Source: an uncultured Verrucomicrobiae bacterium
Lineage (GTDB): Bacteria; Verrucomicrobiota; Verrucomicrobiia; Chthoniobacterales; UBA10450
Direction: 5' to 3'
Length of the DNA stretch: 64,000 nt
NCBI GenBank assembly: GCA_963792775.1
Contig: CAWBXU010000015.1
Span: 263 to 64,262, forward strand
Each line of letters opens with the position of its first letter. Positions within the stretch are counted from its first letter, which is position 1. Made by a program: the position numbers and the translations under genes. Under the pieces are notes generated by a model that had not been told where the DNA came from, did not search any database, and saw only the letters and a list, made by a program, of their open reading frames with translations. Below are positions 1,629-64,000 of this stretch, one piece after another.

Positions 1629-2966
1629 ATGATCAAGCAACCCATCAACCTAACGACCTCATTCGTCGTCCCAACCACTGCGACCTGCCTCGCCCGCGAC
1701 GCCTTGAAGGTTGCTTTCGTGCAGACACGAAAGGAAAACGCGGCTCGTTGGATCAATCGCGACACGTAGCATTGGATCGCTCTTGCAGCTTGCGGTGCTG
1801 GCCGTGATTACAAGGTCCAGCGGAGTTGAGACTGCCGGGTTGTTTTACCTTTTTATGTCGTGGATGATCTTTTTCAGGGACCTTTGGCAGCCTCGGTCTC
1901 CCTATTCAGACCATGCCAGCAGTAGCATCGCTAGACGCCCGGGGGCGCATCGAAGATGCCAACGCTCGCATTCGACAAAACTTTGTGGCGGCAATCGGCT
2001 ATTCCATCTGTCTCGCGGCAGTAATCGCTCTCGCCGCTCCTTACCTATCCAATATGGCTGGCCTTGGACGTCCGCAAATATCCGATTCTCATCCTGGCGT
2101 CAATCTCAGCCGTGGCCTTCACTGCTACCCGGATTGCCTCCGAGACACTGAAAGCCCGCAACCGCGCAAACGAGGGCATGTGCCTCGATTCAGTCCTACC
2201 GTTCGCGGGCCTGTTGTTGTGCATGGGAATGGCAACTGCGGTTTCCCTCAGATTGTCACCAGCCATGGTGGTGAATAGCTATGCCGTCACACTGATCTTC
2301 ATCGGAATTTTAGCCGCAGTCCGGCTCTGGAGGTCATCCCCGTCGCCGGCGACAAATACTAACTCGATCGCCCTAGACATGGACACGCTCCCGCTCTGGG
2401 GAATAGCTCTGGTGAATAATGCAATCACACTTTTACCCTACCTCGTCCTCCCGCACTTCGCGACCCTCTCTGGAAATCGGGTGTTTTGCCATTGCGCACC
2501 GTTTGATAAGATTTTGCGCCACCCTTACGGTTGCGCTGGGAATCACTTCGGGCCTGGTTTCGCTCGCAATTATTCACTTCGCAAGGTGGATGAACTCTCC
2601 CACCAGTTCCGGTCGTCTCAGGTTTGGTCTTTTCTCGCCTATTTGCCGTTTCTGCTCTGTAACCGTATTCGCAAAGTTTATCTTGGTCATTTTTGGAAGG
2701 CACATCGAGCCGGCGATACGATCACCATCCTCGCTATTCTGGCAATAGGAAGAGGTGTAAATGCTGCCTGCGGACTTACCGAATATTTTTTATCGATGGT
2801 TAACAGAAGCAGCGCTGAGTTTTGGAGTTCTGTCTCTTCACTTGTCATATTTTTAGGCTTTACGGCGCTATTGGGTAAAGCTTGGGGTGTGGTGGGCGTC
2901 GCGTTCGCCTTTTCGTTGTCGATGGCGGTACGGGCGGCGGCTTCGCTCATTTACGTCCGGTTGTGA
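1629..2966 (+). pseudogene. MOP/Wzx-like polysaccharide flippase, fragmented over several frames
   Basis: Overlapping ORFs 1711-2151, 1913-2278, 2064-2966 and 2419-2748 each encode hydrophobic helices. The C-terminus LLGKAWGVVGVAFAFSLSMAVRAAASLIYVRL is flippase-like. A possible ATG at 1629 runs into TAG after 46 codons. The family call rests on composition and the C-terminal motif only. Confidence 0.4.
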
Positions 2967-3075
2967 CCAATCAGCTACAAGCCGCTACCTCGTTTTAACA
3001 CTGAAGTCGCACCCAGCCCATTTTCCGATCCAACCAACCTCTAGTGGGAACCAAATTCATTAACGGGAATTCGAT

Positions 3076-3858
3076 ATGCACCTAGCTAGGTCGGGTAATG
3101 TTATAGCCTTGCTGTTCGTTGTTCTTGGCCTCGGCCTTTTCGCTCCTCGCTCGGTCACGAACAGCGATATTCATCCGCTCACTGCCGGGCCCGAATTGGA
3201 ACGCTACAAACTGGTGTGGCACGATGAATTTGATGGCGACACACTCAACAGCGACAATTGGAGTTGCCGTTCCGACTCTAGAAAATGGAGCACTCAGCGC
3301 CAGGAGAATGTTTCCGTAACTGATGGTCAGCTCCGAATTTCTCTGCGAAAGGAATATTATGGCGGCAAAAAATATACTGGCGGTGGAGTTATTAGTAAGA
3401 AGCAATTCAAATATGGTTAGTATGAGGCGCGATTCAAATGCCCTCCCGGTGGAGGCTGGCACACATCCTTCTGGATGATGAAGACAGGCGGCAACCGGGC
3501 GGCGGACCAAGAAATAGACGTGTGTGAGAATGACTCCGTTAACCACACACTGTTCAAGGTGAATGTTCATACCTACAATCCGACCCATCGAAGCCTCGGG
3601 CAAATAGGCATCAATTCTCCCGATCTTTCGGACGGGTATCACATCTGGGGCTGCGAATTTACGCCGAGGCAGGTGACGTTCTTTTTCGACGGGGCGAGAG
3701 TCGCGGGAAAGGACGTCTCCATGATAGGCCATGGCGACGAGAATATCTGGCTGACCTCGATTGCAGCAAGTGACGGAAACACCAAGATGGTGAATGAAGC
3801 GACCTTACCCGCCGTAGCCAGCTTTGATTACGTGCGCTTTTTTAAGGAGTCCGAGTGA
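3076..3858 (+). pseudogene. Glycoside hydrolase family 16 (beta-glucanase/laminarinase-like) with one in-frame TAG
   Basis: Signal-like N-terminus. GH16 hallmarks are WHDEFDG, GGWHTSFWMM and the catalytic EIDVCE (ExDxxE). ORFs 3076-3420 and 3475-3858 share one frame. They are separated by TAG at 3418-3420 within KYG*YEARFK, where GH16 proteins usually carry an aromatic residue. Confidence 0.75.
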
Positions 3859-5340: not shown

Positions 5341-6413
5341 ATGCTCGCTAGTCGAAATGTTGCGCTGGTTTCCGGATTCTGGGGGCAGAACATTGGAAAT
5401 GCATTTTTTAACATCGAGGCAAATGGATCCTTGATCATGTGTTTCCGGAAAGGCGAGTCGAATTCATTCTGGATCAACCTGGATATCGGACTTTTCACAA
5501 ACAACGCACGGGGAATCCTAAGAATGATTTTGGTCTCCTGAAGTATCTGGACTGCGAATACATTGTTCTCCAGGGGCCTATGTTGACAACGTCTTTTCCG
5601 GCTTTATGGGAGGACACGTTTACAGCTCTCAAGGCAAGGGGCACAAGATTTATCCTACTTGGCGCCGCAATGTTTCGCTACACCGACGAAGAAAGGGCAA
5701 TAAACCTCGAATTTCTTCGTCGATTTCGCCCGGCCATTATTAGCACGCGTGATGTCCCGACCTACGAAGCGTTCAAGGACGCGGCTGACTTCACCTATTC
5801 GGGGATAGACAGCGGCTTCTTCGCTTCCGACGCCTACGTGCCATTTCGGTTGACGGGCCCTGATTACATTACGGTGAATTTCGATCGCTGGCCTGAGCCT
5901 AGCATTAGGTTAGATGAGGAGAATGGTGCTGCTGATCGCCGTTTCGAGTATCTTTCGCATCTTTGGTCTCTGAAGTTTCCGCGTCTTCAATACTATCTTT
6001 CAAGTAAGGACAAGGTTAAGTCCTACTTGGGTGCACTCTTAGATGTGCGAAGGCTTCCGAAAAAACTGGGCGACTATGTGGTCATCCGACCTGAGCATCG
6101 ATTTAATCCGCATGTGACATGGAAGATCTATAAGCAGGCAAATGCAGTGGCATCCGATGAGCCGTGGAGTTACTTCACTCTTTACGCGAACACACAACTT
6201 ACGATCAGCGACCGGGTGCACGCGTGTGTCGCCACTCTCGCCTACGGCAAACCTGCCATGTTGTTTAGTCCTTCGCCAAGATCGAAGCTCTTCGACCGAC
6301 TTGGGTTGGATGAAATACGAAACCGGCCGGTAACACTCGATCGTGAAATTCTTCGTTCCATAAAGGATGAAGAGATTTCCTTCCTGAAAAACGCAGTGGC
6401 CAAAGGCTCCTGA
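5341..6413 (+). pseudogene. Polysaccharide pyruvyl transferase-like protein, probable frameshift near 5440-5470
   Basis: The N-terminal piece in another frame reads MLASRNVALVSGFWGQNIGNAFFNIEANG (a Gly-rich N-terminal motif). The main ORF 5439-6413 ends with ISDRVHACVATLAYGKPAMLF, typical of the PS_pyruv_trans family. The frameshift call is less certain than the family call. Confidence 0.5.
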
Positions 6414-6566: not shown

Positions 6567-7775
6567 TTGAAAATCCAGATCATCAGTAATCTGTTTCGTC
6601 CCGATGAGCTGGCCGGTGCGGCTCTCTTTACCGACCTGGCATTCTTTCTAAAGCTGCAGGGACATGATGTGAGGGTGACAACCACCTTTCCTTATTATCC
6701 CGCGTGGAGGCTGAGGCCGGAAGATAAGGGTGTGAAGTGCCGCGACGAAAGCCTTGACGGAATCATAGTCCGCCGTGTGGGAATGTTTGTTCCGGAAAGA
6801 CCAAACGGCGCCCGCCGCGTCGCTTCCGATCTGACGTTCTTCATCAATCTCCTGCGCTACGGGGAATTCAAGGACTGGACGCCGGAGGTCGTACTGACGG
6901 CGTCGCCGATGTTTTCGCAATGTTTGGTCCAGAGGTTTCTTTATCGCGGGCAAAAGATTCCGCGACTCATCGTTGTGCAGGATTTCGTTGTCGATGCCGC
7001 TCTCGAGCTAAAGATACTCTGGTTGCCCGGCTTGGCCGCAACGCTCCGCCAGATTGAACGCTGGTCATTTCTTTCCGCCTCCACGCTTTTCACCATAAGT
7101 CGTCCGATGCTCCAGAAGCTGGAAGGTAAGTTGGACGCGAAAAGGCGCTGTTTGTTTGTCCCGAATTGGATTCATCAGAGTCTGGAGGACGAGGTTACCC
7201 GTCAAAAGGACATTCCGATTCTTCGCCAGCCCAGTTCATTGTTTTATTCCGGCAACTTTGGCGTCAAGCAAGGGCTTCCGAGCTTCGTCGAGTCCTTTAG
7301 TCATTACTCGGGCGATTGGAGCGTGAGGATGCACGGGGGAGGCAGCGAAGCTGGAAATCTTCGCAGACAGATCGAGCGCTGTAAATCGATCACATTGGGG
7401 GGTGTCTTGGACGAAGCTGACTATGTCCGATCGCTCCGTTCCGCGACCGCATGTCTGGTCACACAACAGCCAGGGATAGGGGCAAATTTCCTGCCGAGTA
7501 AAATTCTCCCCGCCCTTGCTACGGGAACTCCGATCCTGGCAATCGGTGATGCGACCAGCCCGCTAGGTCTCGAAGTGCGAGACGGTGGTTTTGGGGCAGT
7601 CGTAGAACCAGGTAATGATCGCCAGCTCGCGGATACCCTCGATGCCTGGACCGCTGATCCGGGGCTTTTGCGAGAGATGGGTCGGAGGTCATTGGTACGC
7701 AGTAAGCTCTATGCCTGGGACACGATTTTACCAATTTACGAGCGGGAGCTGCTCGCGCTCGCGGCGGGCGGCTGA
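6567..7775 (+). CDS. Glycosyltransferase family 4, WcaI-like
   Basis: 402 aa, TTG start. The N-terminus MKIQIISNLFRPDELAGAALFTDLAFFLKLQGHDVRVTTTFPYYPAWRL is characteristic of WcaI-type GT4 enzymes. The C-terminal GT-B half is present. Confidence 0.75.
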   Translation: MKIQIISNLFRPDELAGAALFTDLAFFLKLQGHDVRVTTTFPYYPAWRLRPEDKGVKCRDESLDGIIVRRVGMFVPERPNGARRVASDLTFFINLLRYGEFKDWTPEVVLTASPMFSQCLVQRFLYRGQKIPRLIVVQDFVVDAALELKILWLPGLAATLRQIERWSFLSASTLFTISRPMLQKLEGKLDAKRRCLFVPNWIHQSLEDEVTRQKDIPILRQPSSLFYSGNFGVKQGLPSFVESFSHYSGDWSVRMHGGGSEAGNLRRQIERCKSITLGGVLDEADYVRSLRSATACLVTQQPGIGANFLPSKILPALATGTPILAIGDATSPLGLEVRDGGFGAVVEPGNDRQLADTLDAWTADPGLLREMGRRSLVRSKLYAWDTILPIYERELLALAAGG

Positions 7776-7790
7776 AATTGGGACATAACT

Positions 7791-9257
7791 ATGTACGATC
7801 TTCGGACGAAAGCGATTCGTGGCGCCGGCTGGTCGGTCGCGGGTTCCCTCTCGGGACAGATCGTTTCGTTTGTTGTTTTTCTCTTGCTGGCGCGGCTTTT
7901 GTCCATCGAACAATTCGGCTTGATTGCCCTCGCCAATATCTATGTGTTGGTGGTCCAGATCTTTGTCTTCCAAGGGCTCGGACAGGCCGTCATCCAATTC
8001 GAAGATCTCGACGACCTTCATCTGGACACAGTCTTTTGGATGAATCTGGCGGCAGGCTGCTTTTTCTGTGCGCTCACCTTGGTCGACGCCGATTTCTTTT
8101 CAGGGTGTGTGGGTGCGCCGCCTCTCGGGCCATTACTTCGATGGCTTTCTCCCATATTCCTATTCGCCGCTTTGAGCGATGTGCAGAGTAACCTGCTCAC
8201 CCGCCAGATGGCGTTCTTCTCACTCGCCGCGCGCACCTTTATTTCTTACGTCGCTGGCGGAGTGGTGGGTGTCGCCCTGGCCCTAGGTGGCGCCGGTGCC
8301 TGGAGTATAGTTGGCCAGCAGCTTACTATTTGGGCGCTGAATGTCGTTGTGCTTTGGAGAGCAAGCGATTGGCGGCCTCGCTTTCGCTTCTCGCGCGAGC
8401 GTGCGTCCCGACTGGCCCGCTTCGGCGCAAACCTTCTCTGGGTGGATTTGGCCAGTCTGGCCAATCGGCGGTCGGACCAGTTTTTTATCGCGCGCTTTCT
8501 GGGTCCGGTGGCTGTGGGGATTTACGCGATCGGCGGACGAATCAGCATGCTCTTTGGAGAATTGGTTGTCCGCTCGTTTTCCCGAGTAAGTCTAAGTGCC
8601 TTTGCGCGTCTGCAAAACGATCCGGCGCGTCTCGCCCGCGGTTTCTATGACGTGACCGAAATGCAGGTTGCTCTCGTCTTGCCGATAACCCTCGGAATGA
8701 CTCTAATCGCGCCCTCAGCTGTGTCGCTTTTTTTCGGCGCGAAATGGCTTGGCGCCGCCCCAATCGTTCAAGTCTTGATTCTGGCCCTACCGTTCGAAGC
8801 TCTTTCCGCGATACATTTCTCGGTATTGATCAGCCGAGGACGTCCGCAATGGTGTTCTCTCCTGACCCTGGGGCATGCGTTGGTGAACGTCGCGATGTTC
8901 TTTCTCGCCGTCCGTTTCGGGATGCTCGCGGTGAGCATCGCATACGTCCTTCGTGCTGCCTTGTTTTACCCGGTGGAACTCTGTTTCGTCCGTCAGCTGA
9001 TTCCAATTTCCTTCGTCAAATTGTTTTTACTCTTAGCGTCGCCGCTCGTTGCCGCGCTCGCCATGACGCTCGGGATCTATTTACTACAAGAAGTTGCTGT
9101 CGCCCCTTCTTCCGCCACCTGGCTTTGTTCGGCGGTCGCCCTAGGCGCAGCAATTTACGGGCTGATTGTTTATCTTTTGCGCCCCGGCTTGGTGCGGGAC
9201 TTCTGGAGTCACCTCAGTCTCGTTTTCCAGTCTGAAGCGAGGGTAAGTCAATCGTGA
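7791..9257 (+). CDS. MOP-superfamily polysaccharide flippase (Wzx-like)
   Basis: 488 aa and intact, with about 12-14 predicted TM helices. The N-terminus RGAGWSVAGSLSGQIVSFVVFLLLARLLSIEQFGLIAL is typical of Wzx/polysaccharide biosynthesis proteins. GTGA overlap with the next gene. Confidence 0.75.
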   Translation: MYDLRTKAIRGAGWSVAGSLSGQIVSFVVFLLLARLLSIEQFGLIALANIYVLVVQIFVFQGLGQAVIQFEDLDDLHLDTVFWMNLAAGCFFCALTLVDADFFSGCVGAPPLGPLLRWLSPIFLFAALSDVQSNLLTRQMAFFSLAARTFISYVAGGVVGVALALGGAGAWSIVGQQLTIWALNVVVLWRASDWRPRFRFSRERASRLARFGANLLWVDLASLANRRSDQFFIARFLGPVAVGIYAIGGRISMLFGELVVRSFSRVSLSAFARLQNDPARLARGFYDVTEMQVALVLPITLGMTLIAPSAVSLFFGAKWLGAAPIVQVLILALPFEALSAIHFSVLISRGRPQWCSLLTLGHALVNVAMFFLAVRFGMLAVSIAYVLRAALFYPVELCFVRQLIPISFVKLFLLLASPLVAALAMTLGIYLLQEVAVAPSSATWLCSAVALGAAIYGLIVYLLRPGLVRDFWSHLSLVFQSEARVSQS

Positions 9258-22147: not shown

Positions 22148-22221
22148 CGCGCCCAGGAGGACTCGAACCTCCGACCGTCGGATTAGAAATCCGATGCTCT
22201 ATCCGGCTGAGCTATGGGCGC
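22148..22221 (-). tRNA. tRNA-Arg (anticodon UCU)
   Basis: The minus strand reads GCGCCCA TA GCTC AGCCGGATA GAGC A TCGGA TTTCTAA TCCGA CGGTC GGAGG TTCGAGT CCTCC TGGGCGC G. The cloverleaf has perfect 7/4/5/5 bp stems. The T-loop is TTCGAGT and the anticodon is TCT. CCA is not encoded. Confidence 0.88.
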
Positions 22222-31042: not shown

Positions 31043-31182
31043 ACGGCGGGATCGCTGGGGGCTGAACAGGGAGGGGCGCTTTGCAAGCGCCCATGGCGGT
31101 TTTAAACCGCCGCTCCCTGATCAGGCCTGATCACGACTCGCCTGCACAACCTTATGCGGGGGCGGAAACGAACTCTTTGGTG

Positions 31183-31519: not shown

Positions 31520-31588
31520 TTGTAGGGCGGGCGCTCCGCCTGCCCAAATGTGAGACGAGTCAGGGCAACCGAAGCGGTCGCCCTACAA
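31520..31588. repeat. REPIN-like inverted doublet with GTAG heads, filling the convergent cupin/rpsR gap (likely bidirectional terminator)
   Basis: TTGTAGGGCG..CGCCCTACAA are 10-nt outer inverted repeats. Each half is a GTAG head plus a GC-rich hairpin (GGGCGGGCG-ctc-CGCCTGCCC and GGGCAACC-gaagc-GGTCGCCC). It abuts the rpsR stop at 31589. Confidence 0.55.
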
Positions 31589-39795: not shown

Positions 39796-39946
39796 CTGGG
39801 TAGCGCGTGCGTCTCGCATGCTGGCGACGGTGTTCCACCGTCGCGAACTTTTCTTGCGGCGGAGCCCGTTCGAACGACGTGGCGTAACAAAAAGTTCGTC
39901 GCGCTGGAACAGCGCGACCAGCACACGAGACGTGTGCGCTACCCGG
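39796..39946. repeat. 151-bp REPIN-like palindromic element (GGGTAG heads, nested hairpins)
   Basis: The left arm is CTGGGTAGCGCGTGCGTCTCGCATGC (39796-39821). The right arm GCACACGAGACGTGTGCGCTACCCGG (39921-39946) is its imperfect reverse complement. Internal hairpins are GCGACGGTG-ttc-CACCGTCGC (39824-39844), GAACTTTT..AAAAGTTC (39845-39897) and GTCGCGCTG-gaa-CAGCGCGAC (39898-39918). Confidence 0.7.
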
Positions 39947-39967
39947 GCGTGTGTCCGCTTCAGGTGC

Positions 39968-40050
39968 CTGGGGAGGACGGGCTGGTAGCCCGTCGCGCTT
40001 GGGCGAGTCTCGCCCAAGGCCGTTTGCGGGGAGCGCAACTTGTGGAGGCA
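39968..40050. repeat. Half-element of the same family (GGGGAG head plus two hairpins, then a second GGGGAG-hairpin unit)
   Basis: It reads CTGGGGAG GACGGGCT-ggt-AGCCCGTC gcg CTTGGGCGAG-t-CTCGCCCAAG gcc, then CGGGGAGCGC AACTTG-tggagg-CAAGTT. The first 53 nt align with the reverse complement of 60661-60714, with compensatory stem changes. Confidence 0.7.
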
Positions 40051-47974: not shown

Positions 47975-47995
47975 CGAAAAGCAAGAAGATTTCTA

Positions 47996-48078
47996 AGGAA
48001 CGCAGGAAAGCAGGAATGGTCAGGAGGAAGAAGTGGATTTCTCAAAGTCCATCTCTCTTCCTGTTTTTCTGCGTTCCT
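47996..48078 (+). other. Long stem-loop in the rpoB-rpoC spacer (possible RNA processing site)
   Basis: AGGAACGCAGGAAAGCAGGA (47996-48015) pairs with TCCTGTTTTTCTGCGTTCCT (48059-48078). This gives 18 Watson-Crick pairs plus 2 G-U pairs, the latter valid only in the + sense RNA. The region is locally AT-rich. Confidence 0.5.
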
Positions 48079-48109
48079 CAGCGCTAGAGAATTTTTAGAA
48101 GACAATTTT

Positions 48110-55462: not shown

Positions 55463-58051
55463 TTATTCTGCGCGCAGCGCGACCATCGGATCTACGCGCG
55501 CCGCACGTCGCGCCGGTATCCAGGTCGCGAGCAGGGCCGCGGCCGCGAGGAGAAGCGGCGCGAGCGTGAAGGCAATCGGATCGAGCGCGCCGACTTCGTA
55601 GAGCAACCCGCTCACCACTCTGCCGATCAGGATCGCAAGTACCAGCCCGAGCCCGACGCCACTTAGCAACATGAGCGCGGTTTCGCGCATGAACATCCAT
55701 TGCACCGCGCCCGGCTGCGCGCCCAACGCCATGCGAATGCCGATCTCCCGCCGGCGCCGCGCGACCGCGTAGGCTTTCACCCCGTAAATCCCGATGACCG
55801 CGAGCGCGAGCGCGAGCCCGCCGAAGATGGAAAAAAGCGCTGCCCCCGCCCGCACGAGCCAGAGCTCGACATTGCTCTCGAGATGTTGCGAGAACGTTTT
55901 CAGCGAGAGAATTGGCAGCACCGGATCGACTTCGCGAACCGTCCGCCTGACGAGATCGGCGGCGGTGCTTTCATTGGCGTGACTGAGCGCCGCGAATTTT
56001 ACGATGAAGAAAACCTCGCTCTGGAATCCGCGCGCGAAGGGCAGGTAAAGCGTTCCCGGCTGCTCGCTCTCGAAGATGGCGCCACGCGTCGCCGGCACGA
56101 TGCCGACGACTTCGATCGGTTGTTCCGGCTTAATTTGCCCGTTGCGGTCGTCATTGATGTTGAACCCGTTCCGCTCGGTACCTTTCACGGGGGCGTTGTC
56201 GCTCGCGATCTGGATTTGCTGTCCCAGCGCGTCGCCATCGGGCCAGAGTTTTTTCGCGAGCACATCGTCGATGATCGCGACCGCAGGTCCGCCGGGCTCG
56301 TTTGCCTCCGCCGCATTAAAGGCGCGCCCGCGGAGGAAGCGCAGTCCGGTGGTGGAAAAATAATCCGCGCCCACGCTGTTCCAGCGCGCGCTGAAAGCGA
56401 GGCCCGCCGCGGCCGTCGCCGGATGCGAGTCGGCTGTTCCATGAAAGCCGGCCCGCTGCACGTTCTTATCCAACGAAATCATCCCGAAAGGCACGGTCGC
56501 GGAAATCGTGGCGTGCTCGACCCCAGGAAGAGCGGCCAGGCGCTCCTGCAGTTTGCGATAAAGTTCCTGCGCGTGTTTTTGATCGTAGCCGCCGAGGCTG
56601 GCATCGACTTCGAGGAGAAAACTCCGCTCCGTCTGCAAGCCCGTATCGACGCTCGCTGCTTTCTGCGCGCCGCGGACGAAGAGCGCCGCCGCCGTCAGGA
56701 GGGCGAGAGAAAAGGCGATTTGCGCCACCACGAGCGGATTGCGCGGGAGAAATTTCCAATGCCGCCTAACGACATCTTCGGCCGCGTTTTCCTTCAGATC
56801 GCCGATCACGAGACCGCGCGAAAGTTTCAAGGCCGGCCCGAGGGCGAAGCCGATCGTGCCGAGCATGGCGAAGAGGAGGGTGGCGAGAAGGATGGCGGGC
56901 TTGGGTCCCGTCGTCCAAACGAGATCGAGCGGGATCAGCTTGCCGGCCGAGGCAAAGAGCAGGTCGCACGACCAGAGCCCGAGGAGCAATCCGCCGGCCC
57001 CGCCGCAGAGCGCGAGAACGAATCCTTCGATGAGCAGTTGCCTAACGATTTGCCGGCGGGTCCCTCCGAGCGCCTGCCGAATCGCGATCTCTTTGCGCCG
57101 CGCCGTGCCGCGGGCGAGGAGCATGTTCGCGAGGTTGAGGCAGGCGACGAGGAGCACGACCAGCGACATCCCGAGAAGGAGCGGCGCGACCGTGCCCAGG
57201 TTGCCCGCGCCTTGCGGGCTCGTGCTCGTGGAAAAGCGCGAGACGGGCGTGGTCAAAAAGGTCTGGTTTTTCTGCTCGACGGGGTAGGCCTTTTCCAGAT
57301 TGGTCGCCAGCGTCTTCAGCGCGGGCAACGCGGCCGCCGCCGTCAGGCCGGGTTTGAGCCGGCCAATCAGCATGAGCTGGGTGCTGGCGCGGTCGCCTAA
57401 CGAGTTGCGATTATCCTGCTCGAAATCGTTCGCCACCTGATCGTAAACCCCGAGCGGCAGCCAGACCTCCGGAGCGATGATCTGCATCGTCCCGGCGAAC
57501 CCTTCCGGCAGGATCCCAACGATCGTGAACGGGCGCCCATCGATCAGCATTTTCGAGCCGAGGAGATCGGGCTTGAGGCCCTGTTTTTTCCAATAGCTGT
57601 GACTAACGATCGCGACCTGCGCGTTGCGGCCGGGCGTTTCCTCCTCGGGCAAAAAAGTGCGCCCCTGCGCGGGTGCGCGTCCGAGGACGGAGAAGTAGTT
57701 CGAGCTCACGACATCCGCGAAAGCGCGTCGGGTGTTCCCTTTTTCGCCGATGCCGATCATGGCGAGGTTATGCGCGAAGAGGCCGGAGAAGACGGTGTTC
57801 TGCTCGCGAATGTCGCGATAAGTCGGATAGGAAAAACCGCGAAAGCTCTTCGGGTTTTTCGCATCCTGCGAGAAGAGCTGCACGATTTCGTCAGGCCGCT
57901 CATAACTCGGCGGGTCGTAGAGCAGTGTGTGGATGAGGCTGAAGACGGAGGTGTTGACCCCGATGCCAAGGGCCAGGGTGAGGATCGCAAGGGCGCTGAA
58001 GCCGGGCGATTTGAGGAGGAGCCGAAGGGCGAAGCGGAGGTCGTGGAGCAT
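55463..58051 (-). CDS. ADOP-family duplicated MacB/FtsX-type permease (paralogue 1)
   Basis: 862 aa and intact. The N-terminus is MLHDLRFALRLLLKSPGFSALAILTLALGIGVNTSVFS. There are two FtsX modules (..RRKEIAIRQALGG.. and ..RRREIGIRMALGA..). The C-terminus is ARRAARVDPMVALRAE. Confidence 0.85.
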   Translation of the reverse strand: MLHDLRFALRLLLKSPGFSALAILTLALGIGVNTSVFSLIHTLLYDPPSYERPDEIVQLFSQDAKNPKSFRGFSYPTYRDIREQNTVFSGLFAHNLAMIGIGEKGNTRRAFADVVSSNYFSVLGRAPAQGRTFLPEEETPGRNAQVAIVSHSYWKKQGLKPDLLGSKMLIDGRPFTIVGILPEGFAGTMQIIAPEVWLPLGVYDQVANDFEQDNRNSLGDRASTQLMLIGRLKPGLTAAAALPALKTLATNLEKAYPVEQKNQTFLTTPVSRFSTSTSPQGAGNLGTVAPLLLGMSLVVLLVACLNLANMLLARGTARRKEIAIRQALGGTRRQIVRQLLIEGFVLALCGGAGGLLLGLWSCDLLFASAGKLIPLDLVWTTGPKPAILLATLLFAMLGTIGFALGPALKLSRGLVIGDLKENAAEDVVRRHWKFLPRNPLVVAQIAFSLALLTAAALFVRGAQKAASVDTGLQTERSFLLEVDASLGGYDQKHAQELYRKLQERLAALPGVEHATISATVPFGMISLDKNVQRAGFHGTADSHPATAAAGLAFSARWNSVGADYFSTTGLRFLRGRAFNAAEANEPGGPAVAIIDDVLAKKLWPDGDALGQQIQIASDNAPVKGTERNGFNINDDRNGQIKPEQPIEVVGIVPATRGAIFESEQPGTLYLPFARGFQSEVFFIVKFAALSHANESTAADLVRRTVREVDPVLPILSLKTFSQHLESNVELWLVRAGAALFSIFGGLALALAVIGIYGVKAYAVARRRREIGIRMALGAQPGAVQWMFMRETALMLLSGVGLGLVLAILIGRVVSGLLYEVGALDPIAFTLAPLLLAAAALLATWIPARRAARVDPMVALRAE

Positions 58052-58063
58052 GGTCGTGGTTTT

Positions 58064-60508
<2,445 letters not shown>

Positions 60509-60563
60509 TTGGATGCAGTGGCCGCCTTGTTGGATTCAAATTCCTCTGCCGCGCCTTCAAATT

Positions 60564-60714
60564 CTGGGGAGGACGGAGTGCCACTCCGTCGTTCGGCGCA
60601 GTCTGCGCCGAACTGCGCGCAGGGTTGATTCCTCGAGCACGGGTGGCGCCGTTCGCGGAGGGCCTTGGACGAGACTCGTCCAAGCGCGACGGAGTAACAC
60701 TCCGTCCTCCCCGG
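60564..60714. repeat. 151-bp REPIN-like element (GGGGAG heads) between ADOP paralogues 3 and 2
   Basis: It reads CTGGGGAG GACGGAGTG-c-CACTCCGTC (60564-60590), GTTCGGCGCAG-t-CTGCGCCGAAC (60591-60613), CTTGGACGAG-a-CTCGTCCAAG (60664-60684), then GACGGAGT-aac-ACTCCGTC CTCCCCGG (60688-60714). Confidence 0.75.
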
Positions 60715-60737
60715 AACGGAAATAGCACGCCGGAAGA

Positions 60738-63164
60738 TCATTCTGCCCGTAATGCCTCCATCGGATTCACTTTGGTGGCGCGGCGCGCGGGGAGGTAATT
60801 GGCGAGGAGCGCGACGAGCGCGAGCAGACAAACGACGCTGACGAACGTCACCGGATCCGTCGCGCCCACACCATAGAGCAGGCTCGCAAGAAATCTCGTT
60901 AGGCCAAACGCGGCCAGCAGGCCGAGTCCGAGCCCGATGGCAGCGAGTTTCATTCCGTCGCCCACGACCATGCGAAAGAGCGTCGCGCGTTGCGCCCCCA
61001 AAGCCATGCGAATGCCGAGCTCGCGCGTGCGCTGGGTGACGGCGTAGGAAATGACGCCATACAAACCGAGCGCGGCGAGGGCGAGTGCGATCGCGGCGAA
61101 GGTGCCGAGCAACGCGCCGTTCAGCCGTCGATCCGCGACCGATTCAGCGATCACGTTTTGCATGGTTTCGACCCGGAATAGCGGCAAGCTCGGATCGATT
61201 TCCTGAATGGCGCGCCGCACCGAAGCCACGAGCGCCGTTGGCTCAGTCGCATTCGCCCGCACCACCAAGGTCGCGGTCTGCAGCATGTTGCCTCCCAAAT
61301 CTTTCGAGCCCGGAGCCTGCGCAATCGCGAAGTAAATTTCTGGCTGCGGCTCGCGATCGAGACCGCTCTGCCTGACGTCAGCGACCACCCCGACGATCGT
61401 GAAGGCGTATTCGCTCCCGATAAGAATTTTTCCGCCGAGAATTCCGCTTTCGCTTTCACCGAAGCGACGAGCGAGCGCGCGGTTCACCACGATCGAGGGC
61501 GACGCCATCGCGCCATCGCGCGCATCAGTCAGCCGGCCGGCCAGCAGCGGCACGCCCATCGTCCCGAAGTAATTCCCGGCGACACAGCGGAACTCCGCCA
61601 GCGGCGCCTGCCCGGGCGGGAAAGGATGACCCTCGAGTTTGATGCTGCCGTTCATGCCCCATTGCGCGAGCGGCAGAAAATTGATCGCCCCGGCGCCGCG
61701 CACTCCGGGCAGACTTTGGATGCGGCCGAGCGCACGCTGGTAAAACGCGATGACCTGATCGGCGCGCGCGTAACGATCGTTAGGCAAAGCGACCCGCGCG
61801 GTCAGCACCTGCTCCGGCTCGCGCAATCCCGAGTTGGTCTGCTGCAGGGCCGCGAAACTGCGCAGGAGCAAGCCGGCGCCGCTCAGGAGGACGACGGCGA
61901 GCGCCACTTCCGCGACAACGAGGAGACCGCGCAACCGGTTCGCGCCCGCGAGCGCAGTCTGGCCGTGCAGCGCAGTTTGCATATCGGCCGCGGAACGTCC
62001 CAACATTTGCCGCGCGGGCGCGAGTCCGCAGCCGACCCCGACGCAGAAAGCGAGGAGCGCGGTGAAACCCAAGACCGTTCCATCGAGGTGCACCGCGCTC
62101 GCCCCAGGAATTTGATTGCCTAACAATGCCAGGAGCAGATCGATGCCCCAGATGGCGAGGACAATGCCGGCCGCGCCGCCCAGCGTCGCGAGCAAAATGC
62201 TCTCGATGAGAAATTGCCTAACGAGTCGCGCGCGACTGGCGCCGAGCGCGAGCCGGAGCGCGATCTCGCGCTGGCGTCCGGCGGCGCGGGCGAGGAGAAG
62301 ATTGGCGATGTTGGCGGTCGCGATCAGGAGGACGCAGGCGACGCTTCCGAGGAGAACGAGGAGCGAGGCGCGGCTGTTCCGCGTCAGCTGTTCCTGCAGG
62401 GGGACGAGCGAGATGCTGCGGTCGCCCTGCTCGTCGGGATATTTTTTCCCGATCGTTAGGGCGACCGCTTCCATGTTGGCCTGCGCCTGCGCCAGGGAGA
62501 CGCCGGGACGCAGACGACCGACCACCTGCAATCCGTGATCGCCGCGCGCCGCCATCTGCGCCGGAGTCACGACCAGCGGCACCCAAAGCTGCCCGCGTTC
62601 GCTCGGAAAACGAAAGCTCGCCGGCATTACTCCGATGACGGTGAAAGGCCGGCCATCGAGCGGAATGGTGAGGCCAACGATCGCGGGATCAGCTCCGAAT
62701 TGCGCGCGCCACATTCCCTCGCTGAGCACAACCACGTTCGTGCCGCCGGCCCGGTCTTCACCGCCGACAAACGTTCGGCCGAGCAGCGGCTGCGCGCCGA
62801 GGACGCGGAAATAATTTGCCGAAACGGTGACGCCAAGAATGCGCTCCGGGCTCGTTTTATCCTGCAGCGCGAAATCCTGATATTGGTAGGCCGCGATGCC
62901 TTGCAGCGTCGTGTTCTGTTCGCGCCAGTCGCGAATATTGGCGGGTGAGCTGGAGCCGAGAAAGCCCGCTGGAAATTTCTTGCTCTCGAAAATCTGCACG
63001 AGCTGATCCGGCCGGGTGAGCGGCAGCGGGCGCAGGAGGACGGCGTTGACCACGCTGAAGATCGCGGTGTTCGCGCCGATCCCGAGAGCGAGAGTGAGGA
63101 TCGCAATCAGGCTGAAGCCCGGCGATTTTATTAGAAGCCTGAAGGCGTAGCGAAGATCGTTCAT
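60738..63164 (-). CDS. ADOP-family duplicated permease (paralogue 3)
   Basis: I take ATG 63164 (MNDLRYAFRLLIKSPGFSLIAILTLALGIGANTAIFS), giving 808 aa. The ORF extension to 63272 runs through the palindromic element. It has GRQREIALRLALGA, RTRELGIRMALGA and ARRATKVNPMEALRAE. Confidence 0.85.
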   Translation of the reverse strand: MNDLRYAFRLLIKSPGFSLIAILTLALGIGANTAIFSVVNAVLLRPLPLTRPDQLVQIFESKKFPAGFLGSSSPANIRDWREQNTTLQGIAAYQYQDFALQDKTSPERILGVTVSANYFRVLGAQPLLGRTFVGGEDRAGGTNVVVLSEGMWRAQFGADPAIVGLTIPLDGRPFTVIGVMPASFRFPSERGQLWVPLVVTPAQMAARGDHGLQVVGRLRPGVSLAQAQANMEAVALTIGKKYPDEQGDRSISLVPLQEQLTRNSRASLLVLLGSVACVLLIATANIANLLLARAAGRQREIALRLALGASRARLVRQFLIESILLATLGGAAGIVLAIWGIDLLLALLGNQIPGASAVHLDGTVLGFTALLAFCVGVGCGLAPARQMLGRSAADMQTALHGQTALAGANRLRGLLVVAEVALAVVLLSGAGLLLRSFAALQQTNSGLREPEQVLTARVALPNDRYARADQVIAFYQRALGRIQSLPGVRGAGAINFLPLAQWGMNGSIKLEGHPFPPGQAPLAEFRCVAGNYFGTMGVPLLAGRLTDARDGAMASPSIVVNRALARRFGESESGILGGKILIGSEYAFTIVGVVADVRQSGLDREPQPEIYFAIAQAPGSKDLGGNMLQTATLVVRANATEPTALVASVRRAIQEIDPSLPLFRVETMQNVIAESVADRRLNGALLGTFAAIALALAALGLYGVISYAVTQRTRELGIRMALGAQRATLFRMVVGDGMKLAAIGLGLGLLAAFGLTRFLASLLYGVGATDPVTFVSVVCLLALVALLANYLPARRATKVNPMEALRAE

Positions 63165-63189
63165 AATCGTCTTGGATGTGGCGCGCACT

Positions 63190-63319
63190 CTGGGGAGCGC
63201 ACGCGACTCGCGTGCTGCAATCGGCGACTCGCCGATTGCCTCTGCGGTCTCAGCGCTGGGCGCGAAGAGCATTTCGGCGAGTCGCCAAAATGGGCACGCG
63301 AGTCGCGTGCGCTCCCCAG
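63190..63319. repeat. 130-bp REPIN-like element with perfect 26-nt inverted arms between ADOP paralogues 4 and 3
   Basis: CTGGGGAGCGCACGCGACTCGCGTGC (63190-63215) is the exact reverse complement of 63294-63319. Inner hairpins are AATCGGCGA-c-TCGCCGATT (63219-63237) and TTTCGGCGA-g-TCGCCAAAA (about 63272-63290). It ends 1 nt from the stop of the upstream gene. Confidence 0.8.
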
Positions 63320-63320
63320 A

Positions 63321-64000
63321 TTACTCATCGCGCAGCGCCTCGATCGGGTTGACCCGCGTGGCGCGTTGCGCCGGGAGCAGACAGGCGACAAGCGCGACCG
63401 CCGCGAGCAAGAGCGTAATCGCGCCGAGGGTGAGCGGATCAGAGGCGCTCGTCTGGAAAAGAATCGAGCCCATCGCGCGGGTCGCGAGAAAGGTCGCGAC
63501 CAGGCCGACGAGCAATCCGATCCCGACCAGCTTGCCGCCGCTGCCGAGAATGAGATTGAGCACGTCGCGGGTCTGCGCGCCCAGCGCCATGCGAATCCCA
63601 ATCTCGCCGCGTCGCTGCACGACGTTGTAGGACATGACGCCGTAAATCCCGACTGACGCGATGATGAGCGCGACGATTGAGAAGACGGCGACGAGCGTCA
63701 TGGCGAAGCGTTGCTTCGCGATCGTCTCCGAGAGAATTTCCGTGAGCGGCTGGATCGTGCCGACCGGCTGATCTTTGTCGATGGAATAGACCGCGGGTCG
63801 GAGCGCCCCAATCAGCGCCGCGGGCGAGCCCGTGCTGCGCAGGACGACGTTGAGGGTGTTGAAGGGATGCTGCGCGAAGGGCTCGTAAGTCTGCGCCGTT
63901 GTCTCCTTGTCGACGCCGTACTGTTTGATGTCGCCGACGATCCCGACGATCTGGCGGAAATTTTCCGGACCATTCTGCACATCGATCTGTTTCCCGATCG
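63321..64000 (-). CDS. ADOP/FtsX-type permease (paralogue 4), C-terminal part only; continues beyond the window
   Basis: The frame is open to the window edge. It has VQRRGEIGIRMALGA and the C-terminus AQRATRVNPIEALRDE. Confidence 0.8.
   Translation of the reverse strand, partial: IGKQIDVQNGPENFRQIVGIVGDIKQYGVDKETTAQTYEPFAQHPFNTLNVVLRSTGSPAALIGALRPAVYSIDKDQPVGTIQPLTEILSETIAKQRFAMTLVAVFSIVALIIASVGIYGVMSYNVVQRRGEIGIRMALGAQTRDVLNLILGSGGKLVGIGLLVGLVATFLATRAMGSILFQTSASDPLTLGAITLLLAAVALVACLLPAQRATRVNPIEALRDE

Follow-up and report, generated by a model that had tools for sequence, protein, structure and literature searches.

What is a long, multiply folded palindrome doing between two tandem genes of a soil bacterium: does it act on the genes as part of their transcript, or is it a piece of mobile DNA that happens to reside there? 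The question is raised by a 153 bp element between two genes for ADOP permeases in an uncultured Verrucomicrobiae bacterium (Chthoniobacterales, UBA10450; contig CAWBXU010000015.1). We analysed a stretch of 64,000 nucleotides of this contig (positions 263 to 64,262 of the forward strand, hereafter the window), for which an initial annotation had proposed that the element belongs to a polycistronic RNA and sets different levels for similar paralogues. The analysis shows that the element is one copy of a repeated palindromic family specific to Chthoniobacterales (Verrucomicrobiota), which we call family B. It is very probably a non-autonomous REPIN (an inverted doublet of REPs, or repetitive extragenic palindromes), with a REP-associated tyrosine transposase (RAYT) mobilising it in trans.

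Structure of the element

The whole element forms a near-perfect nested palindrome without coding capacity, and its edges read TCT/GGGGAGG ... CCTCCCC/GGA. Its extent had been given initially as 60564–60714; the element is indeed there, but its conserved edge, as defined by 209 family ends, lies at 60563 and 60715. Within 60564–60714 the sequence is CTGGGGAGG-ACGGAGTgccACTCCGTC-GTTCGGCGCAgtcTGCGCCGAAC ... CTTGGACGAgacTCGTCCAAG-cgc-GACGGAGTaacACTCCGTC-CTCCCCGG. Each end is composed of a head (TCY/GGGGAG), a first hairpin (GACGGNNT-nnn-ANNCCGTC) and a second hairpin, which in its general form has a variable stem of 9–11 bp and the centre AGTCT. A repeat search recovers terminal inverted arms of 30 nt (60562–60591 pairing with 60687–60716) that are 90% complementary, and within each arm a further hairpin, at 60572–60590 (GACGGAGTG c CACTCCGTC) and at 60688–60706. 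Two perfect inner hairpins are located at 60591–60613 (11 bp, centre t) and 60664–60684 (10 bp, centre a). The predicted fold of the 151-nt sequence closes end to end and is similarly stable on both strands: −100.1 kcal/mol on the plus strand (z = −7.95) and −101.1 kcal/mol on the minus strand (z = −10.15), with none of 200 dinucleotide shuffles being as stable in either case. Arms, four hairpins and folds thus confirm the architecture of a hairpin-built family element between ADOP genes.

The inner hairpins had been described as having complementary loops and unrelated stems. The loops are complementary because the two modules are inverted copies with the same AGTCT centre; the stems, however, are not wholly unrelated, as both represent one module (TT.GG...AGTCT). 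A match in length with another element of the window (element A, also 151 bp) had likewise been pointed out. It is a coincidence, and we rejected the idea that it carries meaning, given that lengths in the family range from 121 to 222 bp.

A dispersed repeat family of Chthoniobacterales

A loose pattern, GGGGAGGACGGN9CCGTC, was scanned over 185,579 species genomes. Paired plus- and minus-strand matches 130–220 bp apart occur in metagenome-assembled genomes (MAGs) of Chthoniobacterales only; the matches in Actinomycetota and other phyla are due to chance, and only those in Chthoniobacterales are real elements. To remove the chance matches, we used a stricter pattern, CCGGGGAGGACGGNNTNNNANNCCGTCG, which is found at at least 98 loci. 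Among the matches listed, 97 belong to Chthoniobacterales or Verrucomicrobiae MAGs from at least 10 assemblies, and a single haloarchaeal match proved on checking to be a chance occurrence. The loci listed (L009–L213) provided 209 end modules and 76 complete elements with one plus- and one minus-strand module. Complete elements measure 121–222 bp from GGGG to CCCC, with a mode of 155–160 bp, and their differences in length arise through the central spacer. Members of the family occupy more than 100 unrelated loci, with many copies per MAG, and the 64-kb window holds one full and one truncated copy (found with the covariance model R1 described below).

Family members have sharply defined boundaries. 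Across the 209 ends, GGGGAGGACGG and CCGTC are totally conserved, and conservation stops abruptly three bases outside the head. The family edge is TCY/GGGGAGG...CCTCCCC/RGA, and the information content is nil beyond position −3/−4. No longer conserved terminus is present beyond TCC/GGA in these ends, except for a weak G+C enrichment at −13 to −19. The flanks of 61 of the 76 complete elements share no base that could represent a target-site duplication, and the remainder fits chance; this absence of duplication agrees with transposition of the HUH/Y1 type and not of the DDE type. All but two of the 76 elements lie outside coding-like frames. The gene ends next to them are more often 3′ than 5′ (approximately 59 versus 23, or 2.5-fold, in a rough count based on open reading frames, ORFs).

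Tandem duplications were observed at two loci of one MAG: a whole family-B element with its flank is repeated at L060 2674–3076 (period ~248 bp), and an element with its flank at L152 3734–4280 (period ~386 bp). These duplications indicate that copies multiply by local duplication too.

Conservation and covariation of the hairpins

In a two-hairpin alignment of 20 family ends, 99.2% of the cells are paired, and 12 of the 18 pairs change on both sides. None of 500 column shuffles equals the observed covariation score, and sliding the partner columns by 1–3 positions reduces pairing to 34–49%. Hairpin 1 varies in these 20 ends at two inner pairs only (GC in 13 and AU in 7; GC in 11, CG in 5, UA in 3 and GU in 1). 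In the larger set of 209 ends its pairing is 97.7% Watson–Crick, and the GGGGAG head is invariant. All ten pairs of hairpin 2 vary: 76 distinct stems are present among 168 modules, with ~97% of Watson–Crick pairing, and the centre is AGTCT in 130 of them. The exact variant of left hairpin 2 found in the window element occurs 12 times among the 168 modules, and the variants of right hairpin 2, TTGGGCGAG (window 39998) and TTGGTCGAG (L050), retain their pairing. The combination of a variable stem with a fixed loop possibly reflects either recognition of structure plus loop or palindrome-templated correction.

A covariance model, R1, was built from the 20-end alignment and run on the window. The initial annotation had suggested a scan of this kind for further covarying members, and R1 finds, besides both ends of the element (60562–60621, plus strand, 79.5 bits, E = 5.7e-18; 60654–60716, minus strand, 57.8 bits, E = 1.3e-12), a truncated copy at 39966–40028 (51 bits, E = 6.4e-11). 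This copy is the half-element to which the right half of our element had been compared, and both the homology and the compensatory nature of the changes hold. Comparison of 39968–40022 with the reverse complement of 60660–60714 gives identity at 46 of 55 positions. Among the nine differences, six belong to compensatory pairs, of which hairpin 1 accounts for two (A-T to G-C and G-C to C-G) and hairpin 2 for the third (A-T to G-C), and the two sequences have the same dot-bracket fold.

Imperfect pairs are unequally distributed between the strands: read on the head-first strand, 45 G.T pairs stand against 16 A.C mismatches. This hints that the head-first strand is the one that folds, although the excess derives largely from one abundant inherited variant (21 copies).

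An empty orthologous junction in the closest relative

The closest relative that we found, L117 (JBBSED010000055, Chthoniobacterales LS1_sbin.35), contains the same tandem ADOP genes and is 88–89% identical at the DNA level to window 57659–64000. Its orthologous junction is empty and consists of a stop codon, 34 nt (from the ORF list) and a start codon. The blastn alignments join L117 6001–8427 to window 63164–60738 and L117 8426–11310 to window 60543–57659, leaving 194 bp that are extra in the window (Table 1). One junction further upstream, a family-B copy (5768–5920; R1 scores of 82 and 60 bits) is present in L117 where the window has a different element, element C. Gain, loss or exchange of the repeats has therefore occurred over times comparable to those of species divergence. 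The evidence for mobility comprises this one orthologous pair of an empty and a filled site and one site with differing elements, and the breakpoints take in flanks of ~20 nt. A metagenome scan with the 3′ end of the ADOP gene, aimed at strains with and without the element, returned only an unrelated AT-rich chance match.

The downstream-gene side of the element is adjoined by an imperfect direct duplication of 21 nt (window 60509–60564; TTCAAATTC twice and TTGGATGCA/TTGGATTCA, spacing 21), which has a single counterpart in the empty site of L117. It possibly originated through repair after insertion, or through slippage.

A transposase between the same end modules

Di Nocera et al. report RAYT-like genes with repeats of a similar description at their flanks (PMC3733652), and for this reason the family-bearing loci were searched for Y1 transposases. 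The query, an E. coli RAYT sequence, served to nominate candidates only. The first match, at L162 5805–6464, is a protein of the 211-aa RayT type (Pfam Y1_Tnp, E = 5e-8), flanked by a different double hairpin (AAGGAGCGGCGG...; L162 5743–6440). It was rejected as the cognate of family B, and was reused as a better probe.

This probe uncovered a second RAYT, of 152 aa, placed exactly between two family-B modules on contig JBBSED010000030, which comes from the same MAG as L117 (modules at 7759, plus strand, and 8362, minus strand). The same order of module, RAYT and module is found on DASXPA010000081 (L137 5570–6165). To its left, the RAYT is flanked by TCCGGGGAGGACGGGGTGTCACCCCGTCGTGCCGGAGAGTCTCTCCGGCAC, and to its right by the module in inverted form; the TGCGCGCAG-like motif of the spacer adjoins hairpin 2 in RAYT-bearing copies and is also present inside other copies. 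The 152-aa protein matches the NCBIfam profile NF047646 (REP-associated tyrosine transposase) with an E value of 3e-21 over profile positions 5–145 of 146. The PDB contains a single relative, E. coli TnpA-REP (4ER8), to which the protein aligns at its HUH (PDHVH) and Y (DYITRNP) motifs.

A genome-wide search returned more than 521 relatives of this RAYT, almost all of them from Chthoniobacterales or Verrucomicrobiota. R1 detects a module on both sides of the RAYT in 10 of the 11 closest (group-1) loci, with scores of 39–75 bits, and in the eleventh (L224) the upstream side is removed by the end of the contig. The more distant relatives have no R1 match; the modules that they carry, of the GGGGAGCGCACGCG or GGGTAGCGCACGCG type, are similar to elements C and A of the window. 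Heads of GGGGAG or GGGTAG are common to all RAYT-flanking modules inspected. This combination, a RAYT located between its cognate modules and a repeat that co-varies with the enzyme, is what defines REP/REPIN-RAYT systems.

These observations suggest the following course of events. The element consists of two inverted REP-like end modules (GGGGAG, hairpin 1, hairpin 2) around a short spacer, and when the DNA becomes single-stranded, for example at a replication fork, each end would fold into its two hairpins. A RAYT (HUH/Y1, IS200/IS605 superfamily), whose gene would lie at another place in the genome, enclosed by this same pair of end modules, would recognise head and hairpin, cut, and rejoin the strand, resulting in excision or copying without a target-site duplication. 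Since ends would be recognised only if they can fold, pairing would persist from copy to copy, and palindrome-templated repair may help. The folding of single strands, the recognition of head plus hairpin and the mobilisation in trans are modelled on HUH/Y1 enzymes and on TnpA-REP bound to the REP hairpin (PMC3479197); we likewise infer that the source genome contains a RAYT, that this RAYT mobilises the element, and that cleavage follows the chemistry of such enzymes. The position within the ADOP operon would be a tolerated landing site, and any effect on the mRNA a by-product.

Several findings weigh against a RAYT-mobilised REPIN. No RAYT was found in the 64-kb window, and the cognate enzyme is deduced from relatives of ~89% identity. 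The NF047646 match of the 152-aa RAYT scores 75.8 bits, just under the cut-off of 80, and the protein of L137 reaches 21.4 against a Pfam Y1_Tnp cut-off of 23; other RAYTs of the family pass the latter. The diversity of hairpin 2 stems is unexpected if the enzyme reads the sequence of the stem. Finally, the indel relative to L117 amounts to 194 bp and not to the exact 153-bp element, and the window copy shares with the L117 copy at the neighbouring site a left flank of ~23 nt straight after the ADOP stop codon.

Alternative explanations

The last two findings would be accommodated if the copy at 60563–60715 were a passenger, with exchange between the tandem ADOP paralogues (homologous recombination, gene conversion or unequal crossing-over) and not a transposase having brought it to this junction or removed it. 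We regard this as a realistic though less likely history. The window copy and the copy at the neighbouring L117 junction have the same orientation relative to the genes; their common 23-nt left flank (TCTTCCNGCG.GCTATTTCC.TT) begins right after the stop codon, and their right flanks are partly similar. An alignment at the level of paralogues extends over 769 nt through both coding flanks with 68.5% identity, rising to 83.7% over the element, and the 21-nt direct duplication adjoining the element points in the same direction. Such exchange, however, leaves unexplained why over 200 ends are dispersed among unrelated loci, why the family boundary at TCC/GGGG is sharp and why there is an association with a RAYT. 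It concerns only the last step in the history of this copy and is compatible with mobilisation of the family as REPINs.

We consider it improbable that the element is primarily a cis-acting RNA element of the ADOP operon that sets the levels of the paralogues, whether by attenuation, by offering RNase a processing site or by blocking 3′-exonucleases. Its placement would suit this role: the stop codon of the upstream gene lies 22 nt ahead of the element and the start of the downstream gene 54 nt past it, on the same strand. Neither a promoter-like nor a terminator-like site was seen in 60350–60900; with co-oriented genes and no such site nearby, polycistronic transcription is probable, as had been supposed, and an intrinsic terminator was rejected for the same lack of a terminator-like site. 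The structure on the transcribed strand is very stable (−101 kcal/mol), the window has comparable elements at two of its three ADOP junctions and L117 likewise at two, and the excess of G.T pairs falls on the head-first strand. REPs of E. coli are also known to stabilise upstream mRNA and to attenuate downstream expression.

Against a regulatory role, the orthologous junction of L117 lacks the element and a copy is located at a different junction instead; members of the family turn up in more than 100 contexts that are unrelated; the structure is symmetric with respect to strand; and a transposase is flanked by the same ends. The excess of G.T pairs, moreover, mostly reflects one inherited variant. 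The element contains neither a U-tract nor a terminator-like site. It has no Rfam match at gathering thresholds in a search of the whole window, and a permissive Rfam search of 60400–60900 produces only matches at chance level, the best being sbcD RNA with 16 bits versus a gathering score of 40. Because of the empty orthologous site, the dispersal, the strand symmetry, the lack of Rfam matches and U-tract, and the transposase-flanking ends, we read the covariation as the upkeep of DNA hairpins in a mobile-element family and not as proof of an RNA regulator. The same observations do not support the proposal that the element exists to set differing levels of the paralogues, while the stability of the mRNA or expression downstream may incidentally be affected, as with the REPs of E. 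coli.

A classical MITE (miniature inverted-repeat transposable element), that is, an internally deleted insertion sequence (IS) of a DDE transposase mobilised via its terminal inverted repeats (TIRs), would share the 30-nt TIRs, the length of ~150 bp, the multiple copies and the intergenic position that are general features of Correia and ERIC elements, but is scarcely credible here, since 61 of the 76 copies lack a target-site duplication, the termini are built of hairpins, as usual for elements processed in single-stranded form, the sole gene found between such termini is a HUH/Y1 RAYT, and ~0.7 Mb of family-bearing loci contain no long-distance pairs of plus and minus modules around any other gene.

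Relation to known repeat systems

Among known kinds, family B comes closest to the REPIN/REP-RAYT system, and there to the TIR repeats of TIRtrons. In REPIN/REP-RAYT systems, doublets of REPs are mobilised by RAYTs; examples are E. coli TnpA-REP (4ER8) and the REPINs of Pseudomonas fluorescens (PMC3116915; PMC3479197). Like them, family B is built from short palindromic units that carry a conserved unpaired head and are set as inverted pairs on either side of a spacer; it also resembles them in the tens to hundreds of dispersed and mostly extragenic copies (seen in related MAGs), and in its restriction to a single lineage. Further common features are the lack of target-site duplication, the flanking of a RAYT by the same units (a REPtron), and HUH and Y motifs that align to 4ER8. 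The differences from classical REPINs are a GGGGAG head (GGGTAG in a sister family) in place of GTAG, two consecutive hairpins per end in place of one, a hypervariable second stem with a fixed AGTCT centre, the greater length of ~150–220 bp, and a cognate RAYT that is located in frame inside recG and is not free-standing.

Di Nocera, De Gregorio & Rocco (2013; PMC3733652) describe, in the sections of their report considered here, RAYT-like genes flanked by long TIRs with the motif GGGGWSAS, some of them double palindromic. In these TIRtrons or TIRYTs, the TIR repeats form moderately abundant families organised as dimers. The GGGG(A/T)(G/C) head, the double-hairpin TIRs flanking a tyrosine transposase and the dispersed dimers are shared with family B; the likeness is to the published description, and GGGGAGGA fits GGGGWSAS at positions 1–6 only. 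The TIRtron species named in those sections are Stenotrophomonas, Acidobacteria and others, not Chthoniobacterales. The same sections report the REP families GTAG-17 to GTAG-20 from Opitutus terrae, which is likewise a verrucomicrobial genome rich in coexisting REP families, with REPs tolerated in frame in repair genes. The Opitutus REPs differ in being single short GTAG or GTGG hairpins, and the nesting of a whole RAYT is not reported in that part of the paper. In the literature that we searched, no paper was found to link RAYTs or REPINs to Chthoniobacterales.

Two other kinds of element are similar in part. Correia elements of Neisseria and ERIC elements of enterobacteria are MITEs of ~100–150 bp with TIRs, which fold in RNA and alter the expression of neighbouring genes. 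Their size, TIRs, intergenic co-transcribed position and possible effects on mRNA processing or stability recall the element described here. Correia elements, however, duplicate a TA target and are not known to have an associated Y1 transposase, whereas in family B there is no duplication and a RAYT has the same ends. IS200/IS605 elements and their derivatives, the palindrome-associated transposable elements (PATEs), depend on an HUH/Y1 enzyme and on hairpin ends that are recognised as single-stranded DNA. The type of enzyme, the hairpin-containing ends and the lack of target-site duplication are held in common; in IS200/IS605 both end hairpins belong to one strand and do not form inverted repeats with one another, whereas the ends of family B are inverted as in REPINs.

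Taken with its sister families, family B defines a previously uncatalogued REP/REPIN superfamily in Chthoniobacterales, characterised by GGGGAG/GGGTAG heads and double-hairpin ends. Chthoniobacterales are abundant and poorly studied soil Verrucomicrobiota, and the 64-kb window alone contains at least three families of the GGGGAG/GGGTAG type and a fourth, AGGGAG unit. The link between module type and RAYT lineage supplies a concrete enzyme–substrate pair for biochemistry. The repeats are useful as markers in relation to assembly breaks, strain typing and annotation, as in the case of a mispredicted gene start discussed below. Hairpin elements between ADOP genes are best viewed as mobile repeats, and covariation in them should not be taken as proof of RNA function.

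RAYTs nested in housekeeping genes

The family-B RAYT of L137, with both of its modules, is situated in frame inside recG: L137 4505–7138 (DASXPA010000081) forms one open frame of 878 aa, in which RecG (NF008168, 747.8 bits) is matched in two stretches and the RAYT accounts for residues 387–524. A nested RAYT is also present in JBBSED010000030 at 7700–8420 (L190 and L192, combined as L237). Further RAYTs nested in frame with their double-hairpin modules occur among the Chthoniobacterales/Verrucomicrobiota loci L216–L295. We inspected 42 RAYT loci, and nearly all of the RAYTs are contained in open frames of 800–1500 aa. The hosts identified by Pfam are recG, metH, carB and alaS, with most of the RAYTs in recG, in open frames of 800–1000 aa. 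Nesting in metH (L228, L254 and L272) takes place at two different inter-domain linkers, and L231 apparently has both. The RAYT in carB (L294) is flanked by the GGGTAGCGCACGCG module, and the one in alaS is that of L226.

In-frame REPs in DNA-repair genes such as uvrA are described as tolerated in the cited sections of PMC3733652. The searched literature contains accounts of REPs inside RAYT genes, and of unexpectedly long RAYT proteins that were discarded as fusions or errors, while no description of whole RAYTs nested in housekeeping genes was found in it. We tentatively propose a REPIN system whose RAYT and flanking modules nest in frame in recG, with sister RAYTs in linkers of metH, carB and alaS, though the balance at present tips slightly away from it. 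If true, a transposase would be made within an indispensable host protein, which would be a new route to vertical inheritance and expression for a REPIN-RAYT system; nesting in recG might couple mobilisation to stalled replication forks. Nested RAYTs, if confirmed, would be of interest for the domestication of transposons.

Neighbouring genes and other repeats of the window

The coordinates of the element, its parts and its surroundings are collected in Table 1. Both flanking genes encode ADOP permeases on the minus strand (TIGR03434: 888 and 950 bits). The upstream gene probably starts at 63164 and not at 63272: the TIGR03434 match begins at residue 37 of the longer ORF, an ATG is present at 63164, and the earlier start is disfavoured because the longer ORF (60738–63272) runs into element C. 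Elsewhere in the window, a tRNA gene on the minus strand (22148–22221, 72.5 bits) is the only Rfam match at gathering threshold.

Table 1. Parts of the 153-bp element, genes on either side and related repeats in the window
Feature	Position	Strand	Description or evidence
Whole element	60563..60715	.	REPIN-like inverted dimer of double-hairpin end modules; arms, folds, R1 matches, edge profile
Left head GGGGAG	60566..60571	+	Unpaired tag, counterpart of the GTAG in classical REPs; invariant in 209 ends
Left hairpin 1, GACGGAGT gcc ACTCCGTC	60572..60590	+	Repeat search; covariation at two inner pairs
Left hairpin 2, GTTCGGCGCA gtc TGCGCCGAAC, centre AGTCT	60591..60613	+	All 10 pairs covary
Central spacer	60614..60663	.	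Poorly conserved except for a subterminal TGCGCGCAG-like motif adjoining hairpin 2
Right hairpin 2, CTTGGACGA gtc TCGTCCAAG on the minus strand, extended by GC..GC	60664..60684	-	
Right hairpin 1, GACGGAGT gtt ACTCCGTC on the minus strand	60688..60706	-	Repeat search
Right head, GGGGAG on the minus strand	60707..60712	-	
194 bp extra relative to L117	60544..60737	.	Element with ~20 nt on each side; blastn
Upstream ADOP permease gene	60738..63164	-	TIGR03434, 949.7 bits; 91% identical orthologue in L117
Downstream ADOP permease gene	58064..60508	-	TIGR03434, 888.2 bits; orthologue L117 8462-10906
Truncated family-B copy	39966..40040	+	R1; one end module and subterminal TTTGCG.GGAGCGCAAC motif, without inverted partner
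Sister element A, 151 bp	39796..39946	.	Head CTGGGTAG and hairpins
Sister element C, 132 bp	63189..63320	.	Head CTGGGGAG, GCGCACGCG-act-CGCGTGC and second hairpin; next ADOP intergenic region

Two sister elements are present in the window. A copy of element A with 75% identity is found between two ADOP genes at the third junction of L117 (3161–3312). Element C is an inverted dimer with 66-nt arms that are 79% complementary and a second hairpin centred on GACTC; it gives weak R1 matches of 24.2 and 18.3 bits (63188–63321), and its module type also flanks metH-nested RAYTs in other Verrucomicrobiota. Element A directly adjoins the truncated family-B copy, the two forming a small REP cluster.

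A solo unit of 51 nt (AGGGAG, two hairpins, CTCCCT) is located in an intergenic region at 31068–31118. It belongs to the repeat that flanks the 211-aa RayT in other Chthoniobacterales. That RayT is free-standing; the gene order Peptidase_M3, RayT, beta-lactamase is kept in L214 and L215 (~2850–3650), and orthologues of ~70% identity occur in more than 100 protein clusters. Just past a small cupin-like ORF, an inverted pair with GTAG heads (TTGTAGGGCGGGCGCTCCGCCTGCCC ... GGGCAACCGAAGCGGTCGCCCTACAA) at 31520–31588 probably represents another REP family. Finally, A/T-richer inverted repeats of GGAA/CAGGAA-type words (CTAAGGAACGCAGGAAAGCAGGAA ... TTCCTGTTTTTCTGCGTTCCTCAG) at 47993–48081 may constitute a further repeat family or a terminator, and a similar-looking palindrome lies upstream of the RayT locus at L162 5560–5680.

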